Source: Candidatus Omnitrophota bacterium
Lineage (GTDB): Bacteria; Omnitrophota; Gorgyraeia; B26-G9
Direction: 5' to 3'
Assembly (NCBI GenBank): GCA_043826565.1
Contig: JBDRPX010000038.1
Span: 70,334 to 134,333 of the forward strand
DNA: 64,000 nt
A model generated the notes under the pieces. The model was not told where the DNA came from. It worked only from the letters and a program-made list of their open reading frames with translations, and made no database searches. Position 1 is the stretch's first letter. The number at the start of each line of letters is the position of its first letter. Of the stretch, positions 7,664 through 63,209 are shown piece by piece. The position numbers were made by a program, and so were the translations under genes.

Positions 7664-7724
7664 AAGCAAAAAAGTGAGAGTTGAGAATAGATGATTGAAA
7701 ATTGTAAAAGCCAGTCAGTGATTT

Positions 7725-7759: not shown

Positions 7760-7774
7760 TTGATGAGGTGATTT

Positions 7775-8536
7775 ATGAATGAAAGAAAAGAAAAGATGAA
7801 TGTGAAAAAATTCTCTGAGAATGATATTCAAAAGAAGCTTTATGGTGATACCGGATTTAAAAAGAAAACAATCGCTAAAGAAAAAGAGGATATGCACGAG
7901 AATAATGAGGCTTATTTGGATAAGGATATTCAGGAAGAGATAGATGCCTTAAAGACGGCGATAACAAATCTTGAGCAAACACTTAAAAAAACAGAAGGGC
8001 AAAAAGAACGGTTAAAGAAGAAGCTTGTACAGCGAAGATTTGTGATAAATTTGAAGGATCGAGTTCTAAATAATATTATAAGCAAAGTTCCTGAAAAAGT
8101 TATAATTCTGATTCCGGTGTTGGTTATTATCTTGCTTATGATTATAGTTTTTAACTTGCACAATGAAACTGCCCCGGTTACAACAACTGATGTTACTGTA
8201 GTAGAGGAAGTTATAAATGTTCCCCAAAAGAAAATAGCGGTTGCTTCGGCAAAAGAACCTGATTCCGAAAAAGTTGGTATTGGTGAAAAAAAGTATACAC
8301 TTCAGGTTGCCGAATATTCTAATGAGCAGGCCGCAGTTAAGTTTGTTGGCGACTTGGAACAACAAGGATTCACCGTGGCACTTAAGACAATATATCGCGG
8401 GGATGATAAAAGTCGTCCATATTTTAAAGTTAATGTGGGCGTATTCGGATCTTTTAATGAAGCCAAGAAGTTCATGGAAGCATTTGAAAGAAAAACAGGA
8501 ATAAAGGATTCTTTCATAAAACAGGAGATTAACTAG
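7775..8536 (+). CDS. SPOR-domain membrane protein inserted in the trp operon
   Basis: N-terminal coiled coil, one TM helix, and a C-terminal SPOR peptidoglycan-binding domain ([18 protein letters not shown]…[18 protein letters not shown]). Confidence 0.7.
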
Positions 8537-8538
8537 AG

Positions 8539-9723
8539 ATGGCAATAATGCCTGATTATAACGGATATTTTGGTCCTTTCGGCGGTAAGTTTGTCCCGGA
8601 AACCTTGATGGCGGCCTTAAAGGAGCTTGAAATTTATTATAAAAGTTCGCAAAAAGATCGTCATTTTCAAAAACAATTACAATTCTATTTGAAAGAGTTT
8701 GCCGGAAGGCCGACGCCTTTATATTATGCGCAAAGGCTAAGTTCATATCTGGGAATCAAAGTTTATTTAAAAAGAGAAGATTTGCTTCATACCGGTGCGC
8801 ATAAAATTAATAATACTCTCGGGCAGGTACTGTTGGCGATGAAAATGAAAAAAAAACGTATCATCGCAGAAACCGGAGCCGGGCAGCACGGAGTGGCAAC
8901 TGCGGTTGCTGCGGCACGTTTTGGTTTTGAGTGTGAAGTTTTCATGGGAGAAGAAGATATGCATCGGCAGGAATTAAATGTTTTTCGGATGAAGCTGCTT
9001 GGGGCAAAAGTCTCTTGTGTGTCTTCCGGAAGCAAGACTTTGAAAGATGCTACTAATGAAGCTATCCGTAATTGGGTGAGTAATGTTCGAACTACACATT
9101 ATATCCTGGGATCAGTTGTCGGACCACATCCTTATCCGGTTATGGTACGTGATTTTCAGTCGGTTATCGGCAAGGAAGCGCGAGTGCAGATATTAAAAAA
9201 AGAAAACAGGCTTCCGGATTATTTACTTGCGTGTGTCGGCGGCGGAAGTAATGCGATTGGACTTTTTCATGCGTTCTTTAATGATAAGAAAGTAAAAATA
9301 TGCGGTGTAGAAGCTGCCGGCTGTGGATTATCTTCAGGCAAGCACTCTGCCAGTTTATCTTGTGGCAGAGTCGGAGTGCTCCATGGAAATAAGAGTTATC
9401 TTTTACAGGACGCTGACGGTCAGATAAAAATTGCACATTCTGTTTCCGCGGGACTAGATTATCCCGGGGTCGGCCCGGAGCATTCTTATTATAAAGATAT
9501 CGGGAGGGCAACATATGTTGGGATAACAGATAAGGAAGCTTTGGGGGCTTTAAAGAAACTTTCTCAGCTGGAAGGAATTATCCCGGCACTTGAATCGGCA
9601 CATGCAGTTGCTTATTTACTTAAGGCGGCAAAAAAGATGAGAAAAAATAGTGTTGTAATATTATGCTTATCCGGCAGAGGGGATAAAGACATGGAAATGG
9701 TTTCAACTTTGAAGGTGCTCTAA
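8539..9723 (+). CDS. trpB: tryptophan synthase beta chain
   Basis: PLP-lysine region [11 protein letters not shown] and a GGGSNA motif. AGGAG RBS. Confidence 0.92.
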
Positions 9724-10520
9724 TGAATAGAATTGATGCGAAAAATGCATTACTTAAAAAAAATAAGAAAAAAGCTTTTGTTGCCTATATTACTGCCGGA
9801 TTCCCTAATACGGCTGTTACGGAAAAACTAATCCCTGTTCTCGAGAAAAATGGAGCGGATTTTATTGAATTGGGTATGCCGTTCTCGGACCCGATAGCCG
9901 ATGGCCCGACGATCCAGAAATCTTCATACATTGCTTTAAAAAACGGCATGACCATGAATAAATTTTTCAGGCTGGTAAGAAATGTGCGCAAAAAGTCACA
10001 GGTACCGCTGATAATGATGACCTATTATAATCTTATTTACAATTATGGATTTAAAAGATTCGCGGAAATTGCCAGGAAATCAGGACTTGATGGGGTAATT
10101 GTCCCGGATTTGCCGATTGAGGAAGCGCAGGATTTAAATGAAAATTTAAGGTCAGAAAAAATATCATTAATTTTTCTAATTTCTCCGGTAACCGAAAAAT
10201 CGCGCATGAAAAAAATCTCTAAAGTTTCCGAAGGATTTATTTATTATGTTTCTTTAACCGGAGTAACCGGTGTTCGGGATAAGCTTCCGGATGATTTAGT
10301 TGAAAATGTGAGGCTCATAAAAAATGTTACCAAGAAACCTGTTTATGTCGGTTTTGGAGTGTCTACCTCGGAACAAGTCAAGCAGGTTTCCGAGACGGCA
10401 GATGGGGTTATTGTCGGTAGCGCGATAATAAAAGCGATTACGGAAAATTACGGGAAAAAGGATTTTTTAAAAAAAGTTGGCCGATTTATTGCGGCGCTTA
10501 GTAAGGGAGTTAACGGATGA
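9723..10520 (+). CDS. trpA: tryptophan synthase alpha chain
   Basis: TrpA motifs (ELGMPFSDPIADGP, GFGVS). TAATG overlap with trpB. Confidence 0.88.
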   Translation: MNRIDAKNALLKKNKKKAFVAYITAGFPNTAVTEKLIPVLEKNGADFIELGMPFSDPIADGPTIQKSSYIALKNGMTMNKFFRLVRNVRKKSQVPLIMMTYYNLIYNYGFKRFAEIARKSGLDGVIVPDLPIEEAQDLNENLRSEKISLIFLISPVTEKSRMKKISKVSEGFIYYVSLTGVTGVRDKLPDDLVENVRLIKNVTKKPVYVGFGVSTSEQVKQVSETADGVIVGSAIIKAITENYGKKDFLKKVGRFIAALSKGVNG

Positions 10521-12223
10521 CTGATTATGATCGCCTGGGTGAATTACTAATCCAGAAAAAGATTATAACTGAGGAGCAGCTTGAAAATGCATTAATCAGG
10601 CAGAAAAAGTCTAATTTAAGACTTGGCGAAGAGCTCATTCGCAGTGGGATGGTAAATGAGGAAAGTGTTTTATCTATTCTTGCGGAATCGATGAATATAC
10701 CGTTTATAAAATTAAGAGACGAAACAATAGACGAACAGCTTATTGAAAAGATTCCCGCCCGTTTTGTTACTCACTATAATTTCATGCCTTTACGTGAGGA
10801 TGGGGGAATTCTCGCTATTGCGATTAGTGACCCCCATGATTTATATACCATAGATGAGATAAGATTATTATTAAAACAGCCGTTGAAAATATTTTTGGCA
10901 ACTTCTTTAGAAATAAGTGAGGCGATAAAGAAATTTTATGGGGTGGGAGCCAAAACTATGGCCCAGATGTTTGAAGATTCCCAACAGCTGGAAATTATTC
11001 CTCAGAAAGAAAAAGACATTACCCAAGAAAGTGCCGATGGAACAGACGACCCTTCGGTAATAAATTTTATAGATCAGGTTATCCGCCAGGCAGTAAAGGA
11101 AAGAGCTACTGATATACATATTGAGCCTTATGAAGGTAATTTGCGTTTAAGGTATAGGATTGATGGTTTGCTTTACGATGTGCCTGTTCCTTCGACAATA
11201 CATCATTTTCAATCGGCAATTTTTATTAGGTTAAAAATTATGTCGGATTTGGATATTGCCGAAAAAAGATTACCGCAAGACGGCAGGATAAAAGTTAGGG
11301 TCGATGGTGAGTTTTATGATTTGAGAATTTCAATTTTGCCGACAAATTTCGGGGAAAGTATAGAAATAAGAATACTTTCCAGGAAACAGATATTTTTTAA
11401 TTTAGAACAACTAGGGCTGGATAAGATCGGCTTAGCTATCCTTAATAGCATGATAAAACGGCCGCATGGGATAATTCTGGTTACCGGGCCCACTGGCAGC
11501 GGAAAAACCACCACGTTGTATTCATGTTTAAACAAGATTAACGCTGCCGAAAGAAAGATTATAACGATTGAAGATCCTATAGAATACCAGCTTCAGGGAG
11601 TTACGCAAGTACAGGTTAGGCCTAAGATCAATCTTACCTTTGCGGATGGTTTGCGCTCTATGCTCAGACATGATCCGGATATCATGATGGTCGGAGAAAT
11701 TCGTGATTTAGAAACAGCAGAGTTGGCCATAAGAACGGCCTTGACCGGTCATTTGGTGTTCAGTACTTTGCATACTAATGATGCTCCGGGAGCGGTTGCC
11801 CGTTTATTGGATATGGGAATTGAGCCATATTTGGTAGCATCTTCACTTGATTGTGTGATTGCTCAGCGTTTGGTGCGTTTGGTATGTCCGCATTGCAAAG
11901 AAAAAATCAAGCTTCATGAAGAGTTGCTTAGGGAATTTGGAATAAGCACGGAAAAACTCATTGCCCAGGAGTTCTGCCAAGGACGTGGATGTGAAAAATG
12001 TAACTTCACCGGGTATCATGGCCGTACGGCTATTTTTGAAGTGCTTAATATCGATGATTCCATTAAAGAAATGATCCTTAATCGTATCCCGACTAATACA
12101 ATTAAACAAAAAGCTATTGAAAATAAATTAAAAACACTTAGACAGTCAGGATGGGAAAAAGTGATTGCCGGATTGACAACTCCTGAGGAAGTAATTCGTG
12201 TAACGCAGGAAGATACTATATAA
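10517..12223 (+). CDS. gspE: GspE/PilB-type secretion ATPase with N-terminal MshEN-like motifs
   Basis: Walker A GPTGSGKTTT and a C-terminal tetracysteine (CPHC…CEKC). The N-terminal GSPII_E_N carries two RLGxxLxxxGxIxxxxLxxALxxQ-like repeats (RLGELLIQKKIITEEQLENALIRQ, RLGEELIRSGMVNEESVLSILAE). Start overlaps the trpA stop (ATGA). Confidence 0.88.
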   Translation: MTDYDRLGELLIQKKIITEEQLENALIRQKKSNLRLGEELIRSGMVNEESVLSILAESMNIPFIKLRDETIDEQLIEKIPARFVTHYNFMPLREDGGILAIAISDPHDLYTIDEIRLLLKQPLKIFLATSLEISEAIKKFYGVGAKTMAQMFEDSQQLEIIPQKEKDITQESADGTDDPSVINFIDQVIRQAVKERATDIHIEPYEGNLRLRYRIDGLLYDVPVPSTIHHFQSAIFIRLKIMSDLDIAEKRLPQDGRIKVRVDGEFYDLRISILPTNFGESIEIRILSRKQIFFNLEQLGLDKIGLAILNSMIKRPHGIILVTGPTGSGKTTTLYSCLNKINAAERKIITIEDPIEYQLQGVTQVQVRPKINLTFADGLRSMLRHDPDIMMVGEIRDLETAELAIRTALTGHLVFSTLHTNDAPGAVARLLDMGIEPYLVASSLDCVIAQRLVRLVCPHCKEKIKLHEELLREFGISTEKLIAQEFCQGRGCEKCNFTGYHGRTAIFEVLNIDDSIKEMILNRIPTNTIKQKAIENKLKTLRQSGWEKVIAGLTTPEEVIRVTQEDTI

Positions 12224-12256
12224 AAAATCCTGTTCAGGCAGGAAGAAGGAACTATA

Positions 12257-13462
12257 ATGCCTGTTTTTATCTACAAAGCTAAAGTTAAGCCAAATGTTTT
12301 TAAAACAGGAACTATTGAAGCTGATAGTGAAAAATCCGCCGTAAATAAATTATTACAGTTAAATTACCACCCCATTTCGATAACCCTTGAAGCCGGAAGA
12401 AAATTTAAAAAACACAATTTTTTTCAGAATTTGACCGGAAAGGAAACATATATATTTCTGCGACAATTGTCAAATCTAATCCAGGCGGGGCTTCCGCTGG
12501 TAAAAGCATTGCAAAATATCAGCGTGCAAAGCAGCAACATTAAATTAAGAGTTATCGTGCAGTCGTTGAAAGAAAAAGTCCAAAAAGGAAAAACTTTATC
12601 CGAGGCATTGTCGGATTTTTCGAATTTGTTCAGTTCTCTGGAAATAAGTATGATTAAGGCGGGAGAAGCCAGTGGAACGCTTTCTGAAGTTATTGGAAAA
12701 CTTGCGGATTTAAAAGAAAATGAAATTGCTTTTTCATCAAAAATCAGATCGGCTTTGGCTTATCCGGTCCTTTTATTAGTTGTCGGATTATTAACATTAT
12801 TCATATTAACTACTTTTGTGCTGCCCAAATTCATTGTCCTCTTTCAAGATCTGGGACAGGAACTGCCGTTAATAACCCAAATTTTGATTGCGGTAAGTCT
12901 CTTTTGTAAAAACTGGTGGACAGTTATTATTGCGGTAGGTATATTTGTGGGATTCTCATTAACCGGCTATTTTAAAACGGCCGGTGGAAAACTATGGCTT
13001 GATGCTCTACAGCTGAAGACCCCGATATTAAAGGATGTCGTAACAAAAGTCCAGATTAGCCGATTTTCCCGGACCTTAGGAAGTTTAATAGAGCATGGGG
13101 TGCCTATTCTTAGTTCTCTCCAGGTTGTCGGGGAAATTGCTAGTAATAAGGTTTTTGCTTTGGAGATAAAACGGATACATTCTCAGGTTGCTAAAGGGAA
13201 AAGTATCAGTGAATGCTTGAGAGGGAGCAATATTTTTGATAAAAATACTTTAGATTTAATCTCAGTTGGCGAAGAAGGAGGGCAATTAGAAGAAATGCTT
13301 TTGCGTATAGCAAAGATGAACGAGAGTGAGTCAGCACAAAAGATTGAATCTTTGGTATTTATGCTTGAACCTACATTAATACTAATTCTTGGCGGAGTAG
13401 TTGCGCTTATTGTTGTAGCAATTTTAATGCCGATTTTTCAGATGAATATTTTAATACAATAA
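12257..13462 (+). CDS. gspF: GspF/PilC platform protein
   Basis: 401 aa polytopic protein with the duplicated GspF domain architecture. Confidence 0.85.
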   Translation: MPVFIYKAKVKPNVFKTGTIEADSEKSAVNKLLQLNYHPISITLEAGRKFKKHNFFQNLTGKETYIFLRQLSNLIQAGLPLVKALQNISVQSSNIKLRVIVQSLKEKVQKGKTLSEALSDFSNLFSSLEISMIKAGEASGTLSEVIGKLADLKENEIAFSSKIRSALAYPVLLLVVGLLTLFILTTFVLPKFIVLFQDLGQELPLITQILIAVSLFCKNWWTVIIAVGIFVGFSLTGYFKTAGGKLWLDALQLKTPILKDVVTKVQISRFSRTLGSLIEHGVPILSSLQVVGEIASNKVFALEIKRIHSQVAKGKSISECLRGSNIFDKNTLDLISVGEEGGQLEEMLLRIAKMNESESAQKIESLVFMLEPTLILILGGVVALIVVAILMPIFQMNILIQ

Positions 13463-13485
13463 TATTATTTAATAAGGGGGGGCGA

Positions 13486-13929
13486 ATGCTAAGTGGAAAA
13501 ACAGGATTTACCCGGACAGAGGCAGGGTTTACTTTGATTGAATTAATGCTTGTTGTAATCATCATCGGAACATTGGCGGCGATAGTTATTCCGCGTTTTA
13601 CTGGTCGAGCTGAGCAGGCTCGTAATACCGCGGCAAAGGCTGATCTACTTTCTAACATACCGCTTGCTCTTGATTTATATGAATTGGATAATGGGAGTTT
13701 TCCTACTACTGAGCAGGGGTTGGCTTCACTTGTGCAAAAGCCAAACATTTCGCCTTTACCTAAAAACTGGAATGGCCCATATCTTAAAAAAAAGCCGGTA
13801 GACCCTTGGGGGCAGCAATATGTCTATGTTAGTCCGGGAGTGCATAATAAAGACGACTATGATCTGCATTCGCTGGGTAAAGACGGCGTTGCCGGAGGCG
13901 GGGATGACCTTACCAATTGGGAAGAATAA
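13486..13929 (+). CDS. gspG: major pseudopilin GspG
   Basis: Prepilin leader and cleavage motif G|FTLIELMLVV with Glu at +5. GspG-type C-terminal region (…DPWGQQYVY…). Confidence 0.85.
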   Translation: MLSGKTGFTRTEAGFTLIELMLVVIIIGTLAAIVIPRFTGRAEQARNTAAKADLLSNIPLALDLYELDNGSFPTTEQGLASLVQKPNISPLPKNWNGPYLKKKPVDPWGQQYVYVSPGVHNKDDYDLHSLGKDGVAGGGDDLTNWEE

Positions 13930-14398
13930 TCATGGATTTACATTAATTGAATTACTTGCGGTCATATTAATAATTTCTGTATTAATAAGCCTCAGTATTC
14001 CCACGATAACTAAAACAGCCAGAAAATTTTATTTTATTAATAAAATAAAAACAATAGCTTGCCTTTTTAAATATGTGCGTAATTTGGCGGTATTAGAACA
14101 GAGGGAGTATGAAGCGATTATTGATAGTGACGCTAACACCCTGGAAATTAAACGCCTTGATGAGAATGAATTTACGGAAAAAGAGTTTAAGGCGATCAAT
14201 GATTCTATTTTAAGAGCTCGCAATCTTCCGGATGGATTTTTTATTAAAATGGGAAATGATGATCTAAAGACCAAAGAGATATTCTTTTATCCAAACGGCA
14301 GCTTAACAAGCACAGATATCTATGTTTATGATAAAAAGAACCATGCCGCCCGGATTACGTTGACTGTTAGCGGGCAAATTGTCATGGAGTTTTTATGA
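13904..14398 (+). CDS. minor pseudopilin (GspH-like)
   Basis: ATG at 13904, then KNNHG|FTLIELLAVILI prepilin motif. Overlaps the gspG end by 26 nt. Confidence 0.7.
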   Translation: MTLPIGKNNHGFTLIELLAVILIISVLISLSIPTITKTARKFYFINKIKTIACLFKYVRNLAVLEQREYEAIIDSDANTLEIKRLDENEFTEKEFKAINDSILRARNLPDGFFIKMGNDDLKTKEIFFYPNGSLTSTDIYVYDKKNHAARITLTVSGQIVMEFL

Positions 14399-14757
14399 TT
14401 AAAAAAAAACCGGGGTTTATTTTATTAGAAGTGTTGGTATCTTTGGTTATATTGACTGCGGGTATCTTGGTTCTGATTAGGTCGTTATCCAATATAGTTA
14501 AGAGTAATACAATAATACAAACAAATACTGTTGCCGTTCTATTAGTCGATAATTTATTTACCCGAATTGATTCTGATGAAAAAATTGATGATGAAAATAG
14601 TATGGAAATATTAGGTAAGCAATTTTTTTGGCAGCAGCAGACAACAACCATAAAAGATGATCTTAAAAAAATGATGCTCACTGTTTCTACGGGGGAAAAC
14701 AGCCGGGGAATCAAAACTATTTTTAGCAGCACTTTTATAGACACAGAAGATCAGTAA
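14395..14757 (+). CDS. minor pseudopilin (GspI-like)
   Basis: KKPG|FILLEVLVSL prepilin motif; 120 aa. ATGA overlap with the preceding gene. Confidence 0.65.
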   Translation: MIKKKPGFILLEVLVSLVILTAGILVLIRSLSNIVKSNTIIQTNTVAVLLVDNLFTRIDSDEKIDDENSMEILGKQFFWQQQTTTIKDDLKKMMLTVSTGENSRGIKTIFSSTFIDTEDQ

Positions 14758-14812: not shown

Positions 14813-16003
14813 ATGACGATTTCAGTAGGGATTGGGAAAAGCAAGGAGATTGATTCATTTGCCGCCGGAGCTTTGGCAGTTGCCGAAGCTCTTGATATGA
14901 TGGGCAGCAATGATCCGGATATATTATTTTGCTTTGCTTCATCCAGGTTTGAGCATTTTGAACTTATTCGCGGTGTGAAAAGTACGGTATCTTCAGCACC
15001 GCTTATCGGCTGTACAACAGCAGGCGAAATAACATCTAAAGGACCGGATACAAAGTCAGTTGTTATTTTAGCGCTAAAATCTGATAATCTTCATGCGGCG
15101 ATTGGAATAGGTAAGAATATTAGCAAACAATCCCGAACTGCGGGACAAGAAGTAGCCCGGGACACAGTTATTAAAACAAGGCGGGGAGCAATACGTCATG
15201 CTTTTATGATGTTTCCGGATGGGTTAAAAGGTAATAGCGCTGATATTATTAGAGGTGTTCAGGAGGTCCTGGGAACTAGTTTCCCGATTGTCGGTGGAGC
15301 CGCGGCAGATGATTTTCTCTTTCAAAAGACTTATCAGTATTATGATGACGGCGTGTTTGATGATAGTGTCGGAGGTGTTTTATTCTCCGGGGATATTAGT
15401 TTCGGTATTGGAGCGCGTCATGGCTGGTATCCTTTGGGAAAACCAAGGATTGTAACTGCTGCCGAGCATAATATAATCAAAAAACTTGATGGAAAGCCGG
15501 CGGCGAGGATTTATGAGGATTATTTTGGGAAGCGTGTGGCTGATTTGCAAAACGAACCGATGGCCCGGATGTCAGTCATGTATCCTTTGGGTATGAGTAT
15601 TCCCGGCGAGGAAGAGTGTATTGTTAGAAATGCTTTAAGAGTTGATGCGGAGGGATCTTTGATTTGCGCTGGTGAAGTCCCCAAGGGCTCTGAGATCAGG
15701 GTAATGATGGGATCAAAGGAAACCGCATTAAAAGCAGCAAAAAAAGCGTCTCAAATAGCCTTGGGTGCTTTACGTAAATCCAAGGCCGAAGTGGTGTTTG
15801 TTTTTGATTCTGTATCCCGGGGAAGGTTGTTTGGAAGAAATGCTTCTCAGGAGATTGATGTAGTTAAGGAAATTTTCGGAGTAAATACCCCGATAATCGG
15901 GTTTTATACTTATGGGGAACAAGCTCCGTTGGGTGCGACGATTAATTTGGGGCAGACATTTTTTCATAATGAAACAATTGTTGTTTTTGCATTAGGAGAG
16001 TAA
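14813..16003 (+). CDS. FIST-domain sensor protein
   Basis: 396 aa with the FIST_N/FIST_C layout (…GFYTYGEQAPLG… C-terminal signature). Confidence 0.7.
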   Translation: MTISVGIGKSKEIDSFAAGALAVAEALDMMGSNDPDILFCFASSRFEHFELIRGVKSTVSSAPLIGCTTAGEITSKGPDTKSVVILALKSDNLHAAIGIGKNISKQSRTAGQEVARDTVIKTRRGAIRHAFMMFPDGLKGNSADIIRGVQEVLGTSFPIVGGAAADDFLFQKTYQYYDDGVFDDSVGGVLFSGDISFGIGARHGWYPLGKPRIVTAAEHNIIKKLDGKPAARIYEDYFGKRVADLQNEPMARMSVMYPLGMSIPGEEECIVRNALRVDAEGSLICAGEVPKGSEIRVMMGSKETALKAAKKASQIALGALRKSKAEVVFVFDSVSRGRLFGRNASQEIDVVKEIFGVNTPIIGFYTYGEQAPLGATINLGQTFFHNETIVVFALGE

Positions 16004-16008
16004 AGTTT

Positions 16009-17589
16009 GTGAAAATCAATATTTGGTTAATACTGATAATCGGGGCTGCTGTACTTAGCGTAGTGGTTATTGTTGATAGCATGGTTGCTAAGCTAATGGG
16101 CGGGTTTATACTTTTGGTATTATTAGCATATCTGGCGGAACTTTCCCGAGAGGAAAGAGAGCAGATCTATAAAATGCAGCGTGCTTTGGATAAATTAAGA
16201 AATGCATATAGTGAACTGGATGAACAGGCAAAAATTATTATTCGCACTGACTTAGAACTAAATCGCACACAAGAAGAGCTGGATAAGAAAATTAACGGTT
16301 TATATACGCTGCATGAACTTGGAAAACTAATGAGTTCCGCGCTTGATGTTCAAAAGCTTTTTGCCCAGATAACTGAACCGCTTATTCTTAAACTTGGGTT
16401 TGAGAAAACTATTATATTTCTTAACGAAGGTATTCCTCCTAAAGCCGAATGTAAGGCTTGTATCGGACTTAGCCATTCCCGCATTGAGGAGCTTAAGCAG
16501 GAGCATCTAAAAAGCGAGTTCCTTAAAGGGGTTTTTGAAAGCGGTAGTTCTATTCTTGTTAAAAGCCGGGAGTCGGCAAACCCGGAAGAACGCATATGGC
16601 TTAAATTCTTTGATGTTTCTTCATTTGTAATTGTTCCGATTGTTATAAAAGAGCAGGTGGAAGGGTATATCTTCGTCGGGAACAATAATCCTTATGTGCA
16701 TATTTCCGAGGGTGATATTGATTTAATGTTTATTTTATCAAATCAGGTTGCCGTTGCTTTGGAAAATGCCCGTCTTTATGAAGAATTAAAACGCTCTCAT
16801 GATGAGCTGGAAATTCGCGTGGAAGAAAGAACCCGTGAATTGGCGGAAGCGAATACTAAACTTGTAAAACTTGACAAGATGAAGTCTGACTTTGTGTCTG
16901 CTGTTTCGCATGAATTACGTACTCCGCTTACTTCCATAAAAGGATATGCGGCAATTCTTGGTGCCGGCCGGCTGGGGGATGTCTCAGATGTACAAAAAGA
17001 AAAATTAAATAAAATCAATGTGCATAGTGATGAATTGATTAAGCTGGTAAATGATCTTTTAGATATCGCGCGGATAGAATCCGGCAAAATCGGCATGAGT
17101 ATTAAACATTCATCATTAACTGATATAATTAAGAGTGTGGCTGACTTATTCTTTCCTCAGACTGATGAAAAGAATATTAATTTAGTGCTCAATATGCCGG
17201 AGGAAGCATTATTGGTTTGGATGGATCCGAGCCAAATATCCCGTGTTTTTATAAATTTAATTGGTAATGCATTGAAATTCACGCCTCAAGGCGGTGAAAT
17301 AGCCATACGTGTTTTACCGGGTGATGATTTTATAACTGTTGAAGTTGCCGACTCAGGTATCGGGATAAGTAGAGAAGATTTAGCCCGGGTTTTTGATGAG
17401 TTTTATCGGGTTGACAACGCAATTAATGTTGAGAAAAAAGGAACTGGTTTAGGTTTGCCGCTGGTCAGTAAAATTGTGGCTGCACATAAAGGAAAAATCT
17501 GGGTTTCAAGTGAACTGGGTAAGGGGACAACATTTCATTTTACGTTATCCACTAATAAGGTGGAAGATTCACAGATAAATGTTGCTTGA
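16009..17589 (+). CDS. membrane GAF-domain sensor histidine kinase
   Basis: GTG start 5 nt after the FIST stop. Two TM helices, a GAF domain, an H-box SHELRTPL, and HATPase_c motifs (GNALKFT, DSGIGI, GTGLGL). Confidence 0.85.
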   Translation: MKINIWLILIIGAAVLSVVVIVDSMVAKLMGGFILLVLLAYLAELSREEREQIYKMQRALDKLRNAYSELDEQAKIIIRTDLELNRTQEELDKKINGLYTLHELGKLMSSALDVQKLFAQITEPLILKLGFEKTIIFLNEGIPPKAECKACIGLSHSRIEELKQEHLKSEFLKGVFESGSSILVKSRESANPEERIWLKFFDVSSFVIVPIVIKEQVEGYIFVGNNNPYVHISEGDIDLMFILSNQVAVALENARLYEELKRSHDELEIRVEERTRELAEANTKLVKLDKMKSDFVSAVSHELRTPLTSIKGYAAILGAGRLGDVSDVQKEKLNKINVHSDELIKLVNDLLDIARIESGKIGMSIKHSSLTDIIKSVADLFFPQTDEKNINLVLNMPEEALLVWMDPSQISRVFINLIGNALKFTPQGGEIAIRVLPGDDFITVEVADSGIGISREDLARVFDEFYRVDNAINVEKKGTGLGLPLVSKIVAAHKGKIWVSSELGKGTTFHFTLSTNKVEDSQINVA

Positions 17590-17597
17590 AAGGAAAA

Positions 17598-18536
17598 ATG
17601 AGGAAGCAGAAAATTCTTATTGTTGATGATGAGCCGGATATTCGTGATGTGTTAAAGATTACGCTTGAGTGCGAAGGATATGATGTCGTTGAATCTACCG
17701 ATGGGATAGACGGTCTTTCCAAAGTGCATAAAGCAGCTCCGGATCTTGTAATTTTGGATAATAAGATGCCGAAGATGACCGGGCAAGAAGTGTGTGAGAT
17801 ATTAAAAAAAGATATCCTTCTGAGGCATATGCCGATTATTATGCTGACCGGAAAAGGAGAGATCCAGGATAAAATTAAAGGAATTGACGCCGGAGCAGAT
17901 GATTATATAGTAAAGCCGTTTGAGCCGCAAGAGCTGGTTGCGAGAATAAAAATGATTTTACGTAGAAGTTCACGAGATTTGGATGCTAATCCGTTAAGTC
18001 GTTTGCCGGGAAATGCGACAATCTTAAGTGAATTGGAAGATGCGATAAAAAGTAATAAACCCTTTGCCATATGCTATCTGGATCTTGACAAATTTAAATC
18101 TTTTAACGATACTTATGGATTTGAACATGGAGATGAGGTTATCCGGGAAACCGCCAGAATTATTCTCATGACAGTTATCGAAATGGGGAACAAAGAGGAC
18201 TTTGTCGGACATATCGGTGGTGATGATTTTGTTGTACTTACTACTTTGGATAAAGCAGAGCCTATTTGTAAAAAAATAATTGAGGCTTTCGACAAAGTTG
18301 CTCCGGCTTTTTATAATTTAGAGGACCGGCAGCGAAAATATATTCTGGCTAAAGATCGGAAGGGGAATGCGGAAAAGATTCCGCTGATTTCAATCTCGAT
18401 AGGAATTGTAACGAATGAGTTTCGGACGATTACCCATGTGGCGGAAATTGGCGAAATCGGAGCGGATTTAAAGAAACTGGCAAAGGCAACTCCGGAAAGC
18501 AATTATGTCCGAGACAGCCGTAAAACTGAAGCATAA
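17598..18536 (+). CDS. response regulator: REC + GGDEF-like domain (GGDDF variant)
   Basis: REC domain (ILIVDDEPD…LDNKMP). The GGDEF fold is recognisable (LDLDKFKSFNDTYGFEHGDEV…HIGGDDFVV), but the signature reads GGDDF and the I-site RxxD is replaced by KED. Confidence 0.75.
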   Translation: MRKQKILIVDDEPDIRDVLKITLECEGYDVVESTDGIDGLSKVHKAAPDLVILDNKMPKMTGQEVCEILKKDILLRHMPIIMLTGKGEIQDKIKGIDAGADDYIVKPFEPQELVARIKMILRRSSRDLDANPLSRLPGNATILSELEDAIKSNKPFAICYLDLDKFKSFNDTYGFEHGDEVIRETARIILMTVIEMGNKEDFVGHIGGDDFVVLTTLDKAEPICKKIIEAFDKVAPAFYNLEDRQRKYILAKDRKGNAEKIPLISISIGIVTNEFRTITHVAEIGEIGADLKKLAKATPESNYVRDSRKTEA

Positions 18537-55486: not shown

Positions 55487-55825
55487 CTACATTATAAACT
55501 GAAGCTGTTTATGGCCTTGTTGTTTGGGTGTATTTTTGAGGCCTTTTAAGGCCTTTTTGGCTTGAGTAAGGCTATGCCCTTCTGTTAGCGCTTTTAAAGG
55601 CTTAGGGGTTTCCTTAGGGGTATTTTCGCACTCGCCTACATTGCCGTACAAATGCTCGAGAATTGTTTTTCTTATAAAAACTGAGGGTTCTAAATGACAC
55701 CTGTGAGCTAAAACCTGAATGTTCAGCCATTGCTCATGTGTAAATCTAACATTTATAGTTTTAGTATACTTGATATGCTTTTTAGGTCTGCCCCGGGCTG
55801 GCTTTTTGGCTTCTTGATGCATCAC
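55487..55825 (-). CDS. MobC-like ribbon-helix-helix mobilisation accessory protein (orphan)
   Basis: INVRFTHEQWLNIQVLAHRCHLEPSVFIRKTIL resembles the MobC family core. AGGAGG RBS. No relaxase gene nearby. Confidence 0.5.
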   Translation of the reverse strand: MMHQEAKKPARGRPKKHIKYTKTINVRFTHEQWLNIQVLAHRCHLEPSVFIRKTILEHLYGNVGECENTPKETPKPLKALTEGHSLTQAKKALKGLKNTPKQQGHKQLQFIM

Positions 55826-56004
55826 AAAACCTCCTTGAAATTAAACATGGTAATCGTCCTGACAACCTGTACATAGTGTTATTATATAGTAGATCTATTT
55901 TTAAGGCAACAAAAAATCACAAAAAAACACAAATATTATATAGTCTGATTGAGTGTGGTTTATTGGCTGGATTATTTTGATTTAGTTTTATTGCAGATTT
56001 TTCT

Positions 56005-56817
56005 CTATATTTCATTCCAAGAATCTGTAGCAGTGTCTTCTTGAGGAATATTGCCTTCTAAATCCTTAATTAGGACTTTTTCAGGAAGATTAGATTTAAT
56101 GCATATTGTGTTTCGACCGGTTTTTTTATAATTTACCGGAATAGCAAAAACTACAAAAGCTGTCGCGCTGCCGGTATTACTAAGAACTTCATGATAGTAA
56201 TAACCGTTAAAAGCGCTGGCTATATCACGAGCGGAATTTAGATTCCCCAGCTGCGGATCAATAATCTCAAATTTCCCTTCTTTGTTTATAATTAAATCTT
56301 CAGACCTGGCATATTTACCGTAATGTTCATAATATGTTTTTTGGGCAGAACTATATCTTTTTAGCAATTCGATAGCTTCGGCTTCATTTTTCTTGATTAC
56401 AGCCTCCCCTTCCCTTACAAATCGAGAAGACGATGTGTCTAAGCCTGCTATAGTAACTTCTTGCGTATCCTGAGTATCTGCATTCCGTTTTACTAGAATA
56501 ATCTTTTCCGGAACCTCGCGTTTTTTCTTATGATGTTCTTCGCCATCTTCTCCATAGAAACTTTGAACCACACCTAATTTTCCAATAATTCCGGAAGTTT
56601 TAGATTTTTCCATATCCAGGTCTTTTTGAATTTCTTCAATATTCCGGCTGGCCACCAGTGATTTTTCTTCTCCCCCAATAAAGATTTTTCTGTAAGCTGC
56701 CAACAAAGAATCAAAGGCTTGCCATGCCGCGGCGCAAGCAAGTACTAGGGAAAAAACTATCAGGAAACTCATAATACTAACGCGACCTTTGTTGTTTTTA
56801 CTATTTATGAGTCGCAT
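56005..56817 (-). CDS. membrane-anchored hypothetical protein, paralog A
   Basis: N-terminal TM helix. The C-terminal domain aligns with its neighbour (AIELLKRYSSAQKTYYEHYGKYA / IAALLRRYAAAQELYHAQYGVYA; IIDP; AIPVNY/AIPVDY). Confidence 0.55.
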   Translation of the reverse strand: MRLINSKNNKGRVSIMSFLIVFSLVLACAAAWQAFDSLLAAYRKIFIGGEEKSLVASRNIEEIQKDLDMEKSKTSGIIGKLGVVQSFYGEDGEEHHKKKREVPEKIILVKRNADTQDTQEVTIAGLDTSSSRFVREGEAVIKKNEAEAIELLKRYSSAQKTYYEHYGKYARSEDLIINKEGKFEIIDPQLGNLNSARDIASAFNGYYYHEVLSNTGSATAFVVFAIPVNYKKTGRNTICIKSNLPEKVLIKDLEGNIPQEDTATDSWNEI

Positions 56818-56820
56818 CTT

Positions 56821-57603
56821 TTAAAACTCTTCCCAGGTATTATTTATCTCTTTTGAATAAAATATAGGTCTGGCTCCGTTATTCTTCATCATAACCACAT
56901 TTCCGGTCCTTGAAGAAATACATAAAGTATGAAAACCCGTCACACCATAGTCCACCGGTATAGCGCATAGAATATATTCATCTTCTTTATCTTTATATCG
57001 AGAGCCGTTATTAATTGATTCCATGAAATAGTATCCATTGCGGGTATGTTCTTTACTGTCGGCTAGATCTATTACAAAAATATACGGGTCAATAATGCCC
57101 GGGTACCCATCATCTTCAAGTATAAGGTTTTTAGCGGTCATCGCATAGACCCCATACTGAGCATGATATAATTCCTGAGCCGCCGCATAACGTCTTAATA
57201 ATGCGGCAATACTCAGCTCATTAGAGACCAGCTCCAGTCCATTCGCACTTTTCTTACTTCTTTCGTTGATAAAATTATTTAAAATCTCCTCGAGTATCTC
57301 AGGGGAAGCATTGTCGGATTCTTTTTGCTCAAACACATCATTAATGTAAAATTCATCCAAAGCCTGCCGAATTTTTTGTCTTGACGCTTTAGTATATAAA
57401 TGCGCGTTAGTCTTTGGATAGGAGAATGTCTGTCCTTGCTCCGCAGATTCAGGTATGGCCTTCTCCGGGATAACTACAGCATTCATTGTTCTCATAATTC
57501 CCTGAGTTTTTAAATTATAAATATAGGTTGCCGCAGCAAGGCTTATAAGGAATATCATTAAAACCAATAATACCGAATGCAGTTGTGTACTACCTCTTAT
57601 CAT
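56821..57603 (-). CDS. membrane-anchored hypothetical protein, paralog B
   Basis: Paralogous to 56005-56817 (see that entry). Separated from it by 3 nt. Confidence 0.55.
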   Translation of the reverse strand: MIRGSTQLHSVLLVLMIFLISLAAATYIYNLKTQGIMRTMNAVVIPEKAIPESAEQGQTFSYPKTNAHLYTKASRQKIRQALDEFYINDVFEQKESDNASPEILEEILNNFINERSKKSANGLELVSNELSIAALLRRYAAAQELYHAQYGVYAMTAKNLILEDDGYPGIIDPYIFVIDLADSKEHTRNGYYFMESINNGSRYKDKEDEYILCAIPVDYGVTGFHTLCISSRTGNVVMMKNNGARPIFYSKEINNTWEEF

Positions 57604-57628
57604 ACAAAATCACCTCACGGATAAACAC

Positions 57629-58015
57629 TCAGCCACTCTTGTTTAATATGGCTTTTCTAGCAGCTTCTAATATTTGCTCAACTTCGAAAGGCTTATATAA
57701 ACCATAGGTTTTTCCTCCCGCTTCAATAAACGCCTTTTCTTTTTCCGGCAAACCGATATCTATATGCCCAGTCATTAAAATTATTTCCGTCTCCGGATTG
57801 ATTTCCTTCGCTGCCCTACATGTTTCGATCCCATCTATTCCCGGCATAACCAGGTCAACAAATATTACATCATATTTTACATCACGTATTTTTTCTAGGC
57901 CAGCTTCTCCGCTTAGAGCAGTATCAACACTATATCCCTCATGCTCCAGCACCGCCCTAAGTCCGGTACAGATTACTTTTGTATCATCTATTACTAAAAT
58001 TTTTTCTCCTGACAT
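57629..58015 (-). CDS. single-domain response regulator (REC)
   Basis: ILVIDD … FVDLVMPGIDG … K. 128 aa. Confidence 0.8.
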   Translation of the reverse strand: MSGEKILVIDDTKVICTGLRAVLEHEGYSVDTALSGEAGLEKIRDVKYDVIFVDLVMPGIDGIETCRAAKEINPETEIILMTGHIDIGLPEKEKAFIEAGGKTYGLYKPFEVEQILEAARKAILNKSG

Positions 58016-58025
58016 AACAGGTCAC

Positions 58026-59861
58026 CTACTTAGCTCCAGGAAGAATTAATTCAAACCTGGTTCCCTTCCCGACATGGCTATCCACAAACACCTCGCCATG
58101 ATGTTTTTTTATTATACCATGCGAGATCGACAAACCAAGTCCGACACCTTTTCCCGGGCCTTTTGTTGTAAAGAACGGATCAAATATTTTTGTCAAATTA
58201 TCCCCCGCAATTCCTTCCCCATTATCTATAAACTCTACCATAATTTTAGTGTTATTTTCAATGTTTTTTGTTTTTATTATGATTTCTCCTCCTTGAGGCA
58301 TAGCATCTATAGCATTGCTTATCATATTAAGCACTACCTGCTGCAAAGAGGATTTATGGCCTTTAATGGAAATCAGTTTTCCGTCATATTTTCTTAACAC
58401 TCTTATATTACTATTTTTAAATTGGTGCTGGACAAAGCTTAACGTTGATTCAATAACTATATTGAAGTTTACGTCAACAAATTCCCCTTTTGACTGTCGT
58501 GAAAAGGATATCAGACCTTTTACTATATTTGCCATATACTCAGCTGCTTCAGTCATGATTTGCAATTCTTCACGTTGCCGGGAATCCGGTTGGGCTTTGC
58601 GCAGATAAGTCTTTAATAAGCTCAAAAGTCCGGTTAAGGGACTGTTTAATTCATGGGCAACCCCAGCCGCAAGCTGCCCAATTCCGGAAAGTCGTTCTGC
58701 TTCCACTAGTTGAGCTTGTGCCTTTTTAAGCTTTTCGTAAGCAGCTGTAAGCTCTTGGGCCTTTTTGCTCTCGACAGCCGCAGAAGCGACCTTAGCGGCA
58801 AGTTCTTTTTTCTTTTCCTCATCTTTTTTACGGTCAGTAATATCCTCACCGGAGCTAATAATTCCGATAATCTTTCCATTGTCATCTTTTAAAGGTGAAT
58901 TATGCCAAGCAATGATTCTTTCTTCTCCACTTTTTGTAACGACCGGGTTTTCGAAATATTCAGTAAATCTCAAGTCTCCACTCATCAGTTTATTAAAAAC
59001 TCCCCGCATATCTTTTTTAAACCTTTCCGGCAAAAAATTCTCAAACCAGTTTTTTCGCAGAACCTCCTGTTCTGTATACCCTAATATTTGATGTCCTTTT
59101 TTGTTAATTAAAGTAATACTACCTTGCTCATCCAGAACAAGAAATATTATCGGAGCAATTTCAAGATATAATTTCATTCGATTACGTTCATTAAACAGAG
59201 TCTGCTCCATTAACTTCTGCTCTGTAACATCCCGATTGATCCCGCTATACCCGACACAGACTTTTCCCATTTCATCAAAGACAGGAACAGCACTTGTCTC
59301 CATAATTATCAGACTTCCGTTTTTATGAACAAAAATGCTTTCAAAACGTTTAATTTTTTTGTGGCAGGATATTAGTTTTTGAAATTCTTTGTGACGATGT
59401 TCTAAATCATGAGAAAGCATTAAATCCAACAGATTTTTTCCTATGATTTCTTCAGCATCGTATCCGATAATTTCCCGGCACTGAGGACTGGAATAAATAT
59501 AAAAACCATTCTGATCGGTTTGCCAAAGCCAATTAATAGTGTTTTCAACCAAAGACCGGAATTGTTCCGTTTTATGATAAATTTGATTTTTAATGTCTTC
59601 CTGAATAAAAGCGTAAAAAAAGAAGCTCCAAACTAAAGGAACCAATACTTGGAAATAGTTTTCCCAAACCAAAAAAACTGAATCATAACCAGACCATTCA
59701 ATAATATTACTCAAACTATGAAGGCTTAAAACAGCAATCAAAGCTGCTAAAAAAAACTTAACATTCCCCCAAGATACACGTTTCCAGCCCTTAATCATGA
59801 AGCATGCCGCCATGATCATGATGAACAGATTTATAATGTCCAGCAATAAAATAGTACTCAT
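58026..59861 (-). CDS. PAS/PAC sensor histidine kinase
   Basis: N-terminal TM helices, three PAS-like segments, H-box HELNSPL, and an HATPase_c domain. Start placed at M14 to give an ATGA overlap with the upstream small ORF. Confidence 0.8.
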   Translation of the reverse strand: MSTILLLDIINLFIMIMAACFMIKGWKRVSWGNVKFFLAALIAVLSLHSLSNIIEWSGYDSVFLVWENYFQVLVPLVWSFFFYAFIQEDIKNQIYHKTEQFRSLVENTINWLWQTDQNGFYIYSSPQCREIIGYDAEEIIGKNLLDLMLSHDLEHRHKEFQKLISCHKKIKRFESIFVHKNGSLIIMETSAVPVFDEMGKVCVGYSGINRDVTEQKLMEQTLFNERNRMKLYLEIAPIIFLVLDEQGSITLINKKGHQILGYTEQEVLRKNWFENFLPERFKKDMRGVFNKLMSGDLRFTEYFENPVVTKSGEERIIAWHNSPLKDDNGKIIGIISSGEDITDRKKDEEKKKELAAKVASAAVESKKAQELTAAYEKLKKAQAQLVEAERLSGIGQLAAGVAHELNSPLTGLLSLLKTYLRKAQPDSRQREELQIMTEAAEYMANIVKGLISFSRQSKGEFVDVNFNIVIESTLSFVQHQFKNSNIRVLRKYDGKLISIKGHKSSLQQVVLNMISNAIDAMPQGGEIIIKTKNIENNTKIMVEFIDNGEGIAGDNLTKIFDPFFTTKGPGKGVGLGLSISHGIIKKHHGEVFVDSHVGKGTRFELILPGAK

Positions 59862-60133
59862 GATTTTTTCCCCGGGGAGATAAAGGTCTTCCAGCACCAT
59901 AAGCAGACCAGGCCTGATGAAATTATATAGAAAACATGTTCCAGATAATTTAAAAAATCAGCCCAGAAGATTCCTTCCAAAACCGTCGCTAAAGTACTTA
60001 CAAGAAACACGATCAATCCGGAAAGAATCAATTTGTTATCCGGTAAAACTTTTAGCTGACGCAGATTACCTAAGACAAAAACTACAGCAGCAACACAAAA
60101 TATAAGAGCAAAAAACTCACTGCTATCAATCAC
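59858..60133 (-). CDS. small three-TM membrane protein translationally coupled to the histidine kinase
   Basis: 91 aa hydrophobic ORF whose stop overlaps the HK ATG. Confidence 0.4.
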   Translation of the reverse strand: MIDSSEFFALIFCVAAVVFVLGNLRQLKVLPDNKLILSGLIVFLVSTLATVLEGIFWADFLNYLEHVFYIISSGLVCLWCWKTFISPGKKS

Positions 60134-60306
60134 TTTTTTCTCCTTTAGCGCAAAAAAAGCAACCCCTCCATGAATTGAGAAAATTGCTTAGTGTCACCAT
60201 ACTACAGCCTTGTAGATTTTTTTAAACCTAAATTAATAATACTGCTAAAAATCGCATAAGTCAAACAAATCTATTGGATAACGTCTATTACATCTAAGTT
60301 ACCATA

Positions 60307-60780
60307 TTATTTTTTGAAGATTTCCGGCATGACGATAAAGATAAGCTGCCAATCCCCAAAAGGTGTCTTTTCCAGACAGACAACACCCGAGGGTTTAAAA
60401 GACAGCCAGGTATCCATTTCTTGACCAGTTAAAAGACGGCTGGCAAGTCGGGAAACAAACGGAAGATGCCCTACGATCATAACATCCTTGTCCTGGGCAT
60501 TAAGTTCTAAACAGATATTTTCTACCGGATCATTGGGGCCCAAGTCCTTGCGCTCAAAGGAGCCTTCCTTGGGCCACAATTCTTCGGAAAAAATTTGAGC
60601 GGTTTGTAAAGCCCGGTTTTTTGTACTGCTGTAAATTATATTGATGTTTGCATTAATGGATTTTAAAAAATATGCTACTTTTAAAGTATCTTGCCGTCCT
60701 TGATCAGTAAGCGGCTGTTCCGGGTTCTCTTCCCCAGCAAAGGCTTCTCCATGCCGTGTTATATAAATTTTCATTTCCAT
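60307..60780 (-). CDS. sixA: phosphohistidine phosphatase SixA-like (histidine phosphatase superfamily)
   Basis: RHGEA catalytic motif near the N-terminus. 157 aa. Confidence 0.7.
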   Translation of the reverse strand: MEMKIYITRHGEAFAGEENPEQPLTDQGRQDTLKVAYFLKSINANINIIYSSTKNRALQTAQIFSEELWPKEGSFERKDLGPNDPVENICLELNAQDKDVMIVGHLPFVSRLASRLLTGQEMDTWLSFKPSGVVCLEKTPFGDWQLIFIVMPEIFKK

Positions 60781-61418
60781 CTCCGCAGGTTATAAAAAAA
60801 ATTATTCCGAGAAAATAAGGCATAAAAACAACCAATTATCCATAAAATTACCCCGGATGGTTCAGGTATAATATTTTGAGTACCCGGTGTTCCAAAATCC
60901 CCATCACCATACATGTTTTCCGGCATGGGGGAAGTTGCGATCCAACTCTCAGGATTATTTAGCAATCCCTGGCCGGTAAAAGCCATCGATCTTCCGCTAT
61001 AAACAGGCCAATAATCATTTATATATTCAACCCGGGAAATCTCTACACCGTAACTATTTTCCAATATAATTTCATCTTCAGTATTAGATAGAACAAAGTC
61101 ATTGTAAACGTAGCCTGGGGCATACCCGCCGTTTTCTTCCGTATTACCATTTCTGCCAAGGACTAAGAACCCCTTTGCCGGGATAACCAATACCGATCCA
61201 TTATTTATTTGATGATAATTCGTATCGGCATCTTTTATGGTCCAATTAGTTATATCAATCGCAAAATTTTCATCATTATATAATTCAAGCCATTCTCCCA
61301 GCGCATCGGAAACAGCATTTGGGTCGGCCATGATTTCATTAATAGTTATCCCGGCATATACCGGAAACACGTAAATAACCGCCATTACCAAAACAATCCC
61401 AACTAATCGTTTTTTCAT
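60771..61418 (-). CDS. lamin-tail-domain (LTD) protein with PEP-CTERM sorting signal
   Basis: Signal peptide and LTD motif ITINEIMADP…GEWLELYN. C-terminal PEP + hydrophobic helix + RRWK. Confidence 0.7.
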   Translation of the reverse strand: MKKRLVGIVLVMAVIYVFPVYAGITINEIMADPNAVSDALGEWLELYNDENFAIDITNWTIKDADTNYHQINNGSVLVIPAKGFLVLGRNGNTEENGGYAPGYVYNDFVLSNTEDEIILENSYGVEISRVEYINDYWPVYSGRSMAFTGQGLLNNPESWIATSPMPENMYGDGDFGTPGTQNIIPEPSGVILWIIGCFYALFSRNNFFYNLRRWK

Positions 61419-62555: not shown

Positions 62556-62987
62556 CTATTGCACAAATTGTGTATCCAGAACCGCCTGACTCCAAAATTT
62601 CCAAACATCCCCCTCCTGTTTAAAAACATAGATAAAGTCCACAATATTATTCTGAAATGCCGGACCTTGAACTTTTGTAGTTCTTTGCTTACCCCGCGCC
62701 AAAGCATACTCATCATCTTTTCCAATATAGTTAAAGCTAAGCAGCGTATATCTTAAATCATAATAAGGGAATAGCTGCTTACTTAATTCCATGGTTTGTA
62801 AATATCCCGGAGCTTGCGTATGGATTGTCCGCATCGCCCCGTCAATATCTTCGTTCTCAAGAGCCACGAAATTTGACTCCACCACACCACGCAAAATATC
62901 GCTAATTTTTTTTTCCTGCGCAAACACAGGCTTACAAATTAAAACCATTAAAACTAAAACACTAAACAAAATACCAATTTTTTTCAT
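62556..62987 (-). CDS. secreted hypothetical protein (NTF2-like?)
   Basis: Signal peptide. 143 aa. Confidence 0.45.
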   Translation of the reverse strand: MKKIGILFSVLVLMVLICKPVFAQEKKISDILRGVVESNFVALENEDIDGAMRTIHTQAPGYLQTMELSKQLFPYYDLRYTLLSFNYIGKDDEYALARGKQRTTKVQGPAFQNNIVDFIYVFKQEGDVWKFWSQAVLDTQFVQ

Positions 62988-63008: not shown

Positions 63009-63209
63009 TTATTGTGAAGATTTCATTTTTTCCCACACAAAAAGAATGAATTTACCTAAAAGCCATATCGCCACGATCAATAGTGCCAACATAACTACAA
63101 CGCGCAATAAAAAAGCTAAAACCAATAACAAAGGAATAATTAAAACTCCAATCCCCGCCATGACAATAACCGCAATTAAAAATATAAGTCCGATTAAAAA
63201 TGCTTTCAT
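63009..63209 (-). CDS. small two-TM membrane protein
   Basis: 66 aa, highly hydrophobic. Confidence 0.35.
   Translation of the reverse strand: MKAFLIGLIFLIAVIVMAGIGVLIIPLLLVLAFLLRVVVMLALLIVAIWLLGKFILFVWEKMKSSQ

Follow-up and report, generated by a model that had tools for sequence, protein, structure and literature searches.

Does a pair of paralogous membrane proteins, encoded directly behind a histidine kinase and its receiver, belong to that signalling system, or is the neighbourhood an accident? The question is raised by a locus in chromosomal DNA of Candidatus Omnitrophota (a metagenome-assembled genome; assembly GCA_043826565.1, contig JBDRPX010000038.1). The stretch analysed comprises 64,000 nucleotides and is called the window below. 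A sequence-only reading of the locus had proposed a novel effector or signalling module made up of a PAS histidine kinase, a receiver and the two paralogs, here called A and B. Comparison with 11 loci that hold close relatives of A and B leads to another answer. A and B are probably a DUF2950 pair of an Omnitrophota lineage, with pilin-like heads on anchored stalks, and the kinase became their neighbour by insertion. The probability of this reading as a whole is put at roughly 60%.

Organisation of the locus

Five genes follow each other on the minus strand. The first is a small hydrophobic open reading frame (ORF) of 91 amino acids with about three transmembrane (TM) segments by eye (60133..59858). 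It is followed by the kinase gene (59861..58026, 611 amino acids), encoding a hydrophobic N-terminus, two PAS domains, HisKA and HATPase_c, and by the gene for a stand-alone CheY-like receiver without output domain (58015..57629, 128 amino acids). Paralogs B (57603..56821, 260 amino acids) and A (56817..56005, 270 amino acids) come last and match NCBI ABII88_11660 and ABII88_11655, respectively, at 100% identity.

The small ORF and the kinase gene share an ATGA overlap (ccccggggaaaaaatcATGAgt), read directly in the sequence: the kinase ATG at 59861-59859 overlaps the small-ORF TGA at 59860-59858, and a GGGG run lies upstream. The kinase start at 59861 is favoured because of this overlap and the upstream G-run; the mechanical ORF begins at 59900. 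Kinase stop and receiver start are 10 nt apart, and the 25 nt between the receiver stop and the B start contain a GAGGTG Shine-Dalgarno sequence. The B/A junction is TAA-aag-ATG with a 3-nt spacer, and A is translationally coupled to B. The order of all five ORFs, the ATGA coupling and the 3-nt spacing had been reported correctly by the sequence-only reading. A region scan found no terminator-like site at the junction between the receiver gene and B, and the region contains no Rfam family.

Upstream on the same strand stand a gene for a SixA-type phosphohistidine phosphatase (60307..60780), which overlaps the end of the gene before it, and that gene itself (60771..61418), encoding a secreted lamin-tail-domain (LTD) protein with a PEP-CTERM-like tail (Pfam LTD 2.9e-18). 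The order in the window is thus LTD, overlapping SixA, a 173-nt gap, the 3-TM ORF, kinase, receiver, B and A. The best sigma-70-like promoter match, TTGACT-17-TATTAT on the minus strand at 60236..60264, lies in the 173-nt gap; it is no more than a match to the consensus, and promoter-like sites as a whole are no more numerous in the region than expected from shuffled sequence.

Kinase and receiver form a two-component pair of the ordinary kind: the sensor region is embedded in the membrane, and the receiver lacks a DNA-binding output. A Pfam scan matched PAS_9 (7.9e-28), PAS_4 (1.9e-26), HisKA (1e-11) and HATPase_c (5.9e-25) in the kinase and Response_reg (4.2e-24) over residues 6-119 of 128 in the receiver, where no output domain was matched. 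A kinase with HisKA and HATPase_c and an adjacent REC gene, as expected of a two-component system, are both present, and these domain matches agree with the earlier assignment. In hydrophobic windows the kinase N-terminus has about three TM segments by eye, with short loops and no periplasmic domain. The small 3-TM ORF gave no match in Pfam or NCBIfam and may encode a membrane protein that assists an intramembrane-sensing kinase. It was suspected by eye to be a duplicate of the kinase TM region, and BLASTP finds no similarity between the two.

SixA scores 86.7 bits with NCBIfam TIGR00249 against a cutoff of 74.5, and its RHG motif is present as ITRHGEA. The gene is coupled in translation to that of the LTD protein and comes immediately before the kinase block. 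It is unusual to find SixA paired with a simple HisKA kinase and a regulator made of a receiver alone, and the kinase lacks an HPt domain.

Conservation of the gene order

The loci with close relatives of A and B have neighbours of a different kind. Locus L002 (GCA_024231215.1) has the order LysE, LTD/PEP-CTERM, a B-type gene after an 8-nt gap, a gene for 337 amino acids and a ribbon-helix-helix (RHH) gene, with NUDIX and GNAT genes further on. An ENA scaffold (L003) carries the end of an LTD/PEP-CTERM gene, a B-type gene, an A-type gene with a 1-nt overlap and an RHH gene, and a tandem pair is found on another ENA scaffold (L011). Three loci from JGI and ENA (L004, L005 and L012) share the order M50, aroB, GNAT, NUDIX and homolog. 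In GCA_016213925.1 (L013) PilZ, a 297-amino acid protein and a Zn-ribbon protein precede the homolog, which is convergent with NUDIX, GNAT and aroB. The homolog follows Zn-ribbon and 139-amino acid genes in a Logan contig (L007) and a cupin gene in GCA_018826325.1 (L008). It is followed by genes for 65 and 97 amino acids, the latter cut, in an ENA sequence (L014) and by ABC_sub_bind and a HAMP kinase in GCA_023819605.1 (L006).

SixA, the 3-TM ORF, an orthologous PAS kinase and the receiver were found in none of these 11 loci. In the two nearest relatives whose upstream gene is visible, no other gene separates the LTD/PEP-CTERM gene from the B-type gene: LTD orthologs lie directly upstream of the orthologs P0003 (8-nt gap) and P0004, and SixA is absent there in L002 and L003. 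The window LTD protein is 52% identical to its L002 ortholog. The A-type orthologs P0006 and P0011 are second in tandem pairs, and the locus is syntenic beside aroB, GNAT and NUDIX in at least six genomes.

The kinase adjacency is best seen as a lineage-specific insertion, because none of the 11 loci has the block and the nearest relatives have the LTD gene followed by the B-type gene. Most simply, a block of about 3.2 kb (60780..57629) would have entered a pre-existing LTD-B-A operon in a single insertion. No direct or inverted repeats were found bounding the SixA-kinase-receiver block. The proposal of an effector or signalling module does not hold against this comparison, and the co-occurrence with PAS kinase and receiver pairs by which it was to be checked is absent from the related loci. 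The sequence-only reading had also stated what would speak against it, namely paralogs in a well-known family with an unrelated housekeeping role and without conserved linkage. A known family and no conserved linkage were indeed found, but the family is not a well-known housekeeping one.

A and B might still be functional partners of the adjacent two-component system, either as extracytoplasmic co-sensors together with the 3-TM protein or as targets of the receiver. The genes lie on the same strand at a distance of 25 nt, with a Shine-Dalgarno sequence and no terminator-like site between receiver and B; a kinase without periplasmic domain would need an accessory sensor, and the receiver lacks an output domain. 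Two related loci also have a two-component gene at most two genes from the homolog, a HAMP kinase in L006 and a convergent REC gene in L012. These are not orthologs, however, since they share 24% and 36% (partial) identity with the window proteins and are no closer to them than unrelated paralogs in the window. With the orthologous kinase and receiver missing from all 11 loci, the B-type gene placed directly after LTD in the nearest relatives and parsimony in favour of a single insertion in the window lineage, such a partnership is considered unlikely.

Structure of the paralogs

A and B are real paralogs with 36% identity over 101 amino acids (BLASTP, E=1e-13). Both carry LL(R/K)RY..AQ..Y...YG.YA, IIDP and AIPV(D/N)Y, the common C-terminal motifs that had been recognised from the sequence alone. 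B is built up by a TM anchor (residues about 6-32), a partly helical and poorly conserved stalk (about 41-118) and a C-terminal domain (119-260; 57249..56824). A has the same architecture, with the DUF2950-like domain at residues 122-270 (56454..56008). The poorly conserved, partly helical stalk between anchor and head is about 90 residues long in both. The topology of A and B is inferred as N-in/C-out because basic residues precede the anchor, and the head would thereby be extracytoplasmic.

In the subfamily formed by A, B and their relatives, conservation is much stronger at the N-terminus than in the stalk. The N-terminus consists of a basic stretch, the motif [GA]-x-x-[ST]-[LI]-[YF]-[ST] and a hydrophobic segment ending in AAW, and was found in 11 of 14 members by regular expression; B shows Gly by alignment. 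NCBI starts paralog A at Met16, giving 255 amino acids, and the conserved motif lies upstream of that residue (56772-56817). A start at 56817, 45 nt upstream of the NCBI start, is more likely because the upstream motif aligns with the orthologs. The identity of the B-type protein to its L002 ortholog is 44% and is confined to the C-terminal 144 amino acids, compared with 52-65% over the full length for the neighbouring genes. Such fast evolution fits an exposed protein.

Membership of the DUF2950 family

A profile of the C-terminal domains of A and B, used in an exhaustive HMMER search, matched 117 proteins at E<=1e-3 and 25 at E<=1e-10. PF11453 (DUF2950) was present in 99 of the 107 relatives that were scanned, with a best E-value of 8.5e-79, and N_methyl, ComP_DUS, Pilin_GH or DUF1559 were also found on a few of them. 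The Pfam DUF2950 profile has a length of 274 and a gathering threshold of 20.2 bits. This cutoff is passed by the orthologs P0003 (23.8 bits), P0004 (21.7), P0005 (34.5), P0006 (23.0), P0007 (23.8) and P0009 (23.5). A itself reaches 15.7 bits over its full length and 17.9 bits for the domain only (E=1.8e-3, profile positions 109-134), and B reaches 11.9 bits (221-252); both are sub-threshold, and the matches are collinear with the profile. A also matches the minor pilin family ComP_DUS (E=1.1e-3). Word-indexed searches with B, with A or with a 27-sequence alignment returned essentially the queries themselves and a few canonical DUF2950 proteins, and two metagenome scans with narrower alignments gave no relatives.

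By transitive homology, A and B are divergent DUF2950 members, because the relatives found with their profile carry PF11453 and the nearest orthologs pass the cutoff. The paralogs had been described as not assignable to a characterised family; they do fall in a named Pfam family, though one of no known function. The hedged suggestion that they are DUF2950-like or pilin-like turned out to be right on both counts, by HMMER and Pfam for the first and by Foldseek and the comparison of the profile with PDB for the second.

Relationship to type IV pilins

In a full-length AlphaFold2 model of B (pLDDT 78.6), residues 6-40 are helical, the linker that follows (41-118) is of low confidence, and residues 120-150 form the head helix. 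The model of the domain only, made from a 76-sequence alignment, reaches pLDDT 89.1 and pTM 0.85 and consists of a helix of about 30 residues packed on a β-sheet. In Foldseek against PDB the domain-only model has Thermus thermophilus PilA4 (6xxd_A) at rank 1 (probability 0.99, TM-scores 0.53/0.60, E=0.05) and the Shewanella pilin 4d40 at rank 2, with EpsG and Myxococcus xanthus PilA lower. This modelling of the C-terminal domain had been suggested by the sequence-only reading as a check and speaks for the pilin half of its proposal. No meaningful match was obtained with the full-length B model.

The family profile also matches PDB sequences of pilins, namely PilA4 (E=4.3e-5), M. xanthus PilA (2e-3) and PilE1 (4.5e-3), and the alignment runs through the α1-C helix. 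When PDB was searched by sequence with B alone or with a profile of two sequences, there were either no matches or chance ones, for example SH3 and cystathionine lyase. Among the local ORFs, the DUF2950-like hidden Markov model weakly matches the GspG ORF of the window (E=0.0028). Two members of the family, P0102 and P0111, have canonical prepilin leaders (KGFTLMEL and GGFTLVEL) fused directly to the domain. Because the sequence profile, the predicted fold and the members with prepilin leaders point the same way, we conclude that the DUF2950-type domain is a homolog of the pilin head.

Are A and B then pilins themselves? The N-terminal motif might be an unusual class III signal cut by prepilin peptidase, and A and B would then be non-canonical pilins or pseudopilins which build or prime a fibre of the type II secretion system (T2SS) or type IV pilus (T4P) kind, with the machinery 42 kb away (10517-14757). 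The pilin-like head, the strong conservation of the N-terminus relative to the stalk and the G or A after the basic stretch in 11 of 14 members are in line with this, as are the GspE, GspF and GspG proteins and two further N_methyl proteins encoded by the genome. Against it, A and B have no match to N_methyl of Pfam, though the true pseudopilins of the window do. A class III signal has Gly at -1, Phe or Met at +1 and Glu at +5; the N-termini are G-STQLHS in B and G-RVSIMS in A, without Glu at +5, and the leader of the window GspG is GFTLIEL. In the full-length model α1-N is not continuous with α1-C, the partly disordered stalk of about 90 residues is unlike anything in pilins with solved structure, and no assembly genes are adjacent at the loci examined. 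A pilin function of A and B is improbable.

Proposed role of the paralogs

On the preferred reading of an anchored DUF2950 pair, each of A and B is a single-pass membrane protein, probably N-in/C-out, with an anchor, a stalk of about 90 residues and an α/β head that is homologous to the type IV pilin head by profile and predicted fold. B and A are tightly coupled in translation, in relatives too, which suggests that they act as a pair; they would be made together, possibly as a heterodimer. The motifs common to DUF2950 proteins (NE..A..L..Y..AQ..Y, GYYF, PAxYGx[ST]G..T, KD..G and W) form a candidate binding surface for an envelope or extracellular ligand. The ancestral string would have been LysE, LTD/PEP-CTERM, B and A, in some cases with RHH, beside aroB, GNAT and NUDIX, and the block of SixA, 3-TM ORF, PAS kinase and receiver would have been inserted between LTD and B in the window genome only. 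In this genome A and B may plausibly be transcribed together with the kinase as a consequence of the insertion, and both the adjacency and the shared transcript would be accidents and not a conserved signalling-effector module.

Several points weigh against this reading. The related loci number only 11, several of them on short contigs. A and B stay under the Pfam gathering score for DUF2950 (20.2 bits), and together with their orthologs they span only positions of about 109-262 of the 274 in the profile, the N-terminal subdomain (1-108) being unmatched. The literature searched on DUF2950 describes no member with known function, and the role as a binding module is one that we infer. As to the fold, the Foldseek E-values are weak (0.05), the alignment of the profile with pilins partly runs through the hydrophobic helix, and the family compared with the window GspG gives an hhalign probability of 19.6%. 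Finally, the 25-nt spacing without a terminator-like site makes co-expression with the kinase likely, and a locally acquired link is conceivable.

Such a link would lead to a further reading, in which A and B are extracytoplasmic receptors derived from pilin heads and wired in this lineage to the loop-less, membrane-embedded PAS kinase, with the 3-TM protein, SixA and the output-less receiver as the other components. In a variant, [GA]-x-x-S-L-Y-S would be a new class III signal and the proteins 'stalked' pilins. This is quite unlikely; if true, it would describe a freshly assembled sensory module with a detached pilin head as its ligand-binding element.

What the preferred reading of an anchored DUF2950 pair removes is a false lead, since the kinase adjacency would be an insertion in a single genome and not a conserved signalling-effector system. 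What it adds is modest: DUF2950 is linked to the type IV pilin head, which suggests the hypothesis of a pilin-derived binding domain at the surface or in the periplasm, and an Omnitrophota subfamily is defined whose anchor motif is conserved, whose stalk is long and whose head evolves fast. These features fit a role in the envelope or in cell contact. Omnitrophota are thought to include host-dependent nanobacteria (PMC10066038).

The ribbon-helix-helix gene

Downstream of the A/B pair on the minus strand lies the RHH gene (55487..55825, 112 amino acids), which has its own promoter-like site at 55909..55881 on the minus strand. Its product is NikA-like in Pfam at the threshold (27.7 against 27.0 bits), and the gene corresponds to the mobile-element remnant that the sequence-only reading had placed next to the module. 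In L002 (10135-10470) and L003 (1886-2245) orthologs occupy the corresponding end of the cluster. The N-terminal 50 residues are nearly invariant in the three genomes, with the consensus RGRPKK.IKYTKTINVR.THEQWL..QV.AH..HLEPSVFIRKT.LE, whereas the neighbouring genes are only 35-65% identical; this constraint is unusually strong for a small protein. A genome scan anchored on RHH returned L002 again and a related RHH in an unrelated context (L010).

The A/B pair and RHH would on the mobile-element interpretation be cargo of a degraded element, for example a mobilisation remnant. Besides the score at the threshold, the unrelated context in L010 and an IS200-type Y1 transposase that lies some 0.5 kb past RHH in L002 could be taken as signs of this. 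No plasmid or phage relatives of RHH were found, however, and the window has no relaxase, integrase, transposase, tRNA target or flanking repeats. The base composition is even across the window, and the synteny beside aroB, GNAT and NUDIX in at least six genomes also speaks against it. Mobile cargo is thus very improbable, and RHH is better read as a small regulator which binds DNA and accompanies the cluster.

Other genes in the window and related loci

The conserved gene string appears to extend beyond the LTD gene. An all-hydrophobic protein of 66 amino acids (63209..63009, minus strand) and a secreted protein of 143 amino acids without family match (62987..62556, minus strand) are 62% and 65% identical, respectively, to proteins in L002 (6051-6703), and the two genes stand in the same order upstream of LysE and LTD in the window and in L002. 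The 65-amino acid genes after the homologs in L005 and L014 were considered as kin of the 66-amino acid TM gene and are unrelated to it. The tail of the LTD protein, IPEPSG followed by a hydrophobic segment and a basic tail, implies an exosortase system in the organism. In two more distant relatives, L008 (1604-2284) and L013 (2716-3390), a gene for a PilZ protein of about 225 amino acids precedes the DUF2950-like gene at a distance of a few genes, which may reflect a connection to cyclic di-GMP or simply local synteny.

An independent assembly of the window locus exists as a Logan contig (L001, SRR26275510_302020, 8838 bp). It breaks just past RHH and near position 63.9 kb of the window, whereas the NCBI contig continues for 134 kb. 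The break may reflect strain variation or a change of coverage at the convergent junction of NUDIX and RHH.

A trp operon, dnaE and a T2SS-like cluster are found elsewhere in the window. The trp operon (3189-10520, plus strand) consists of trpE (3189-4685), trpD, trpC, trpF, trpB and trpA, and is interrupted between trpF and trpB by a SPOR-domain gene (7775-8536). The T2SS/T4P-like cluster (10517-14757, plus strand) begins with a GspE-type ATPase with MshEN (10517-12223) and GspF (12257-13462), and continues with GspG with N_methyl (13486-13929) and two more N_methyl pseudopilins (13820-14398 and 14395-14757). After the pseudopilins follow genes for a FIST protein, a GAF histidine kinase and a REC-GGDEF regulator (14813-18536, plus strand).

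Comparison with known systems

Intramembrane-sensing histidine kinases of the LiaFS and SaePQRS type work with small membrane accessory proteins. The window kinase resembles them in having short extracytoplasmic loops only and a small multi-TM ORF that is translationally coupled to it. It differs from them in its cytoplasmic PAS domains and receiver-only regulator, and there is no sequence relationship.

The secreted DUF2950 proteins of rhizobia have signal peptides, are co-localised with DUF3300 and are induced in symbiosis (PMC4653623). The A/B family shares with them the motifs NE..A..L..Y..AQ..Y, GYYF, PAxYGxSG..TF, KD.G and W; as in DUF2950 proteins the domain is predicted to be extracytoplasmic, and the closest orthologs pass the Pfam cutoff. 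Unlike DUF2950 proteins, A and B score below the cutoff, lack the N-terminal subdomain of 100 residues in the profile and have a TM anchor that looks uncleaved and a long stalk in place of a signal peptide. Unlike the rhizobial proteins they also occur as a tandem paralog pair and have no DUF3300 neighbour; neither the neighbours scanned in the window nor the Pfam families precomputed for the related loci include DUF3300.

Compared with type IV pilins, A and B have no G-F-T-L-x-E leader, the stalk of about 90 residues parts the head from the membrane helix, and no assembly genes adjoin them, so that their role is probably non-filamentous. The likeness lies in the head. As in type IV pilins and GspG (PilA4, 6xxd; M. 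xanthus PilA, 8tj2), a long α1-C helix lies on an antiparallel sheet, and the helix motif N-E/D...A..L......Q..Y......Y is common to pilins and the A/B family, a few members of which are true prepilins.

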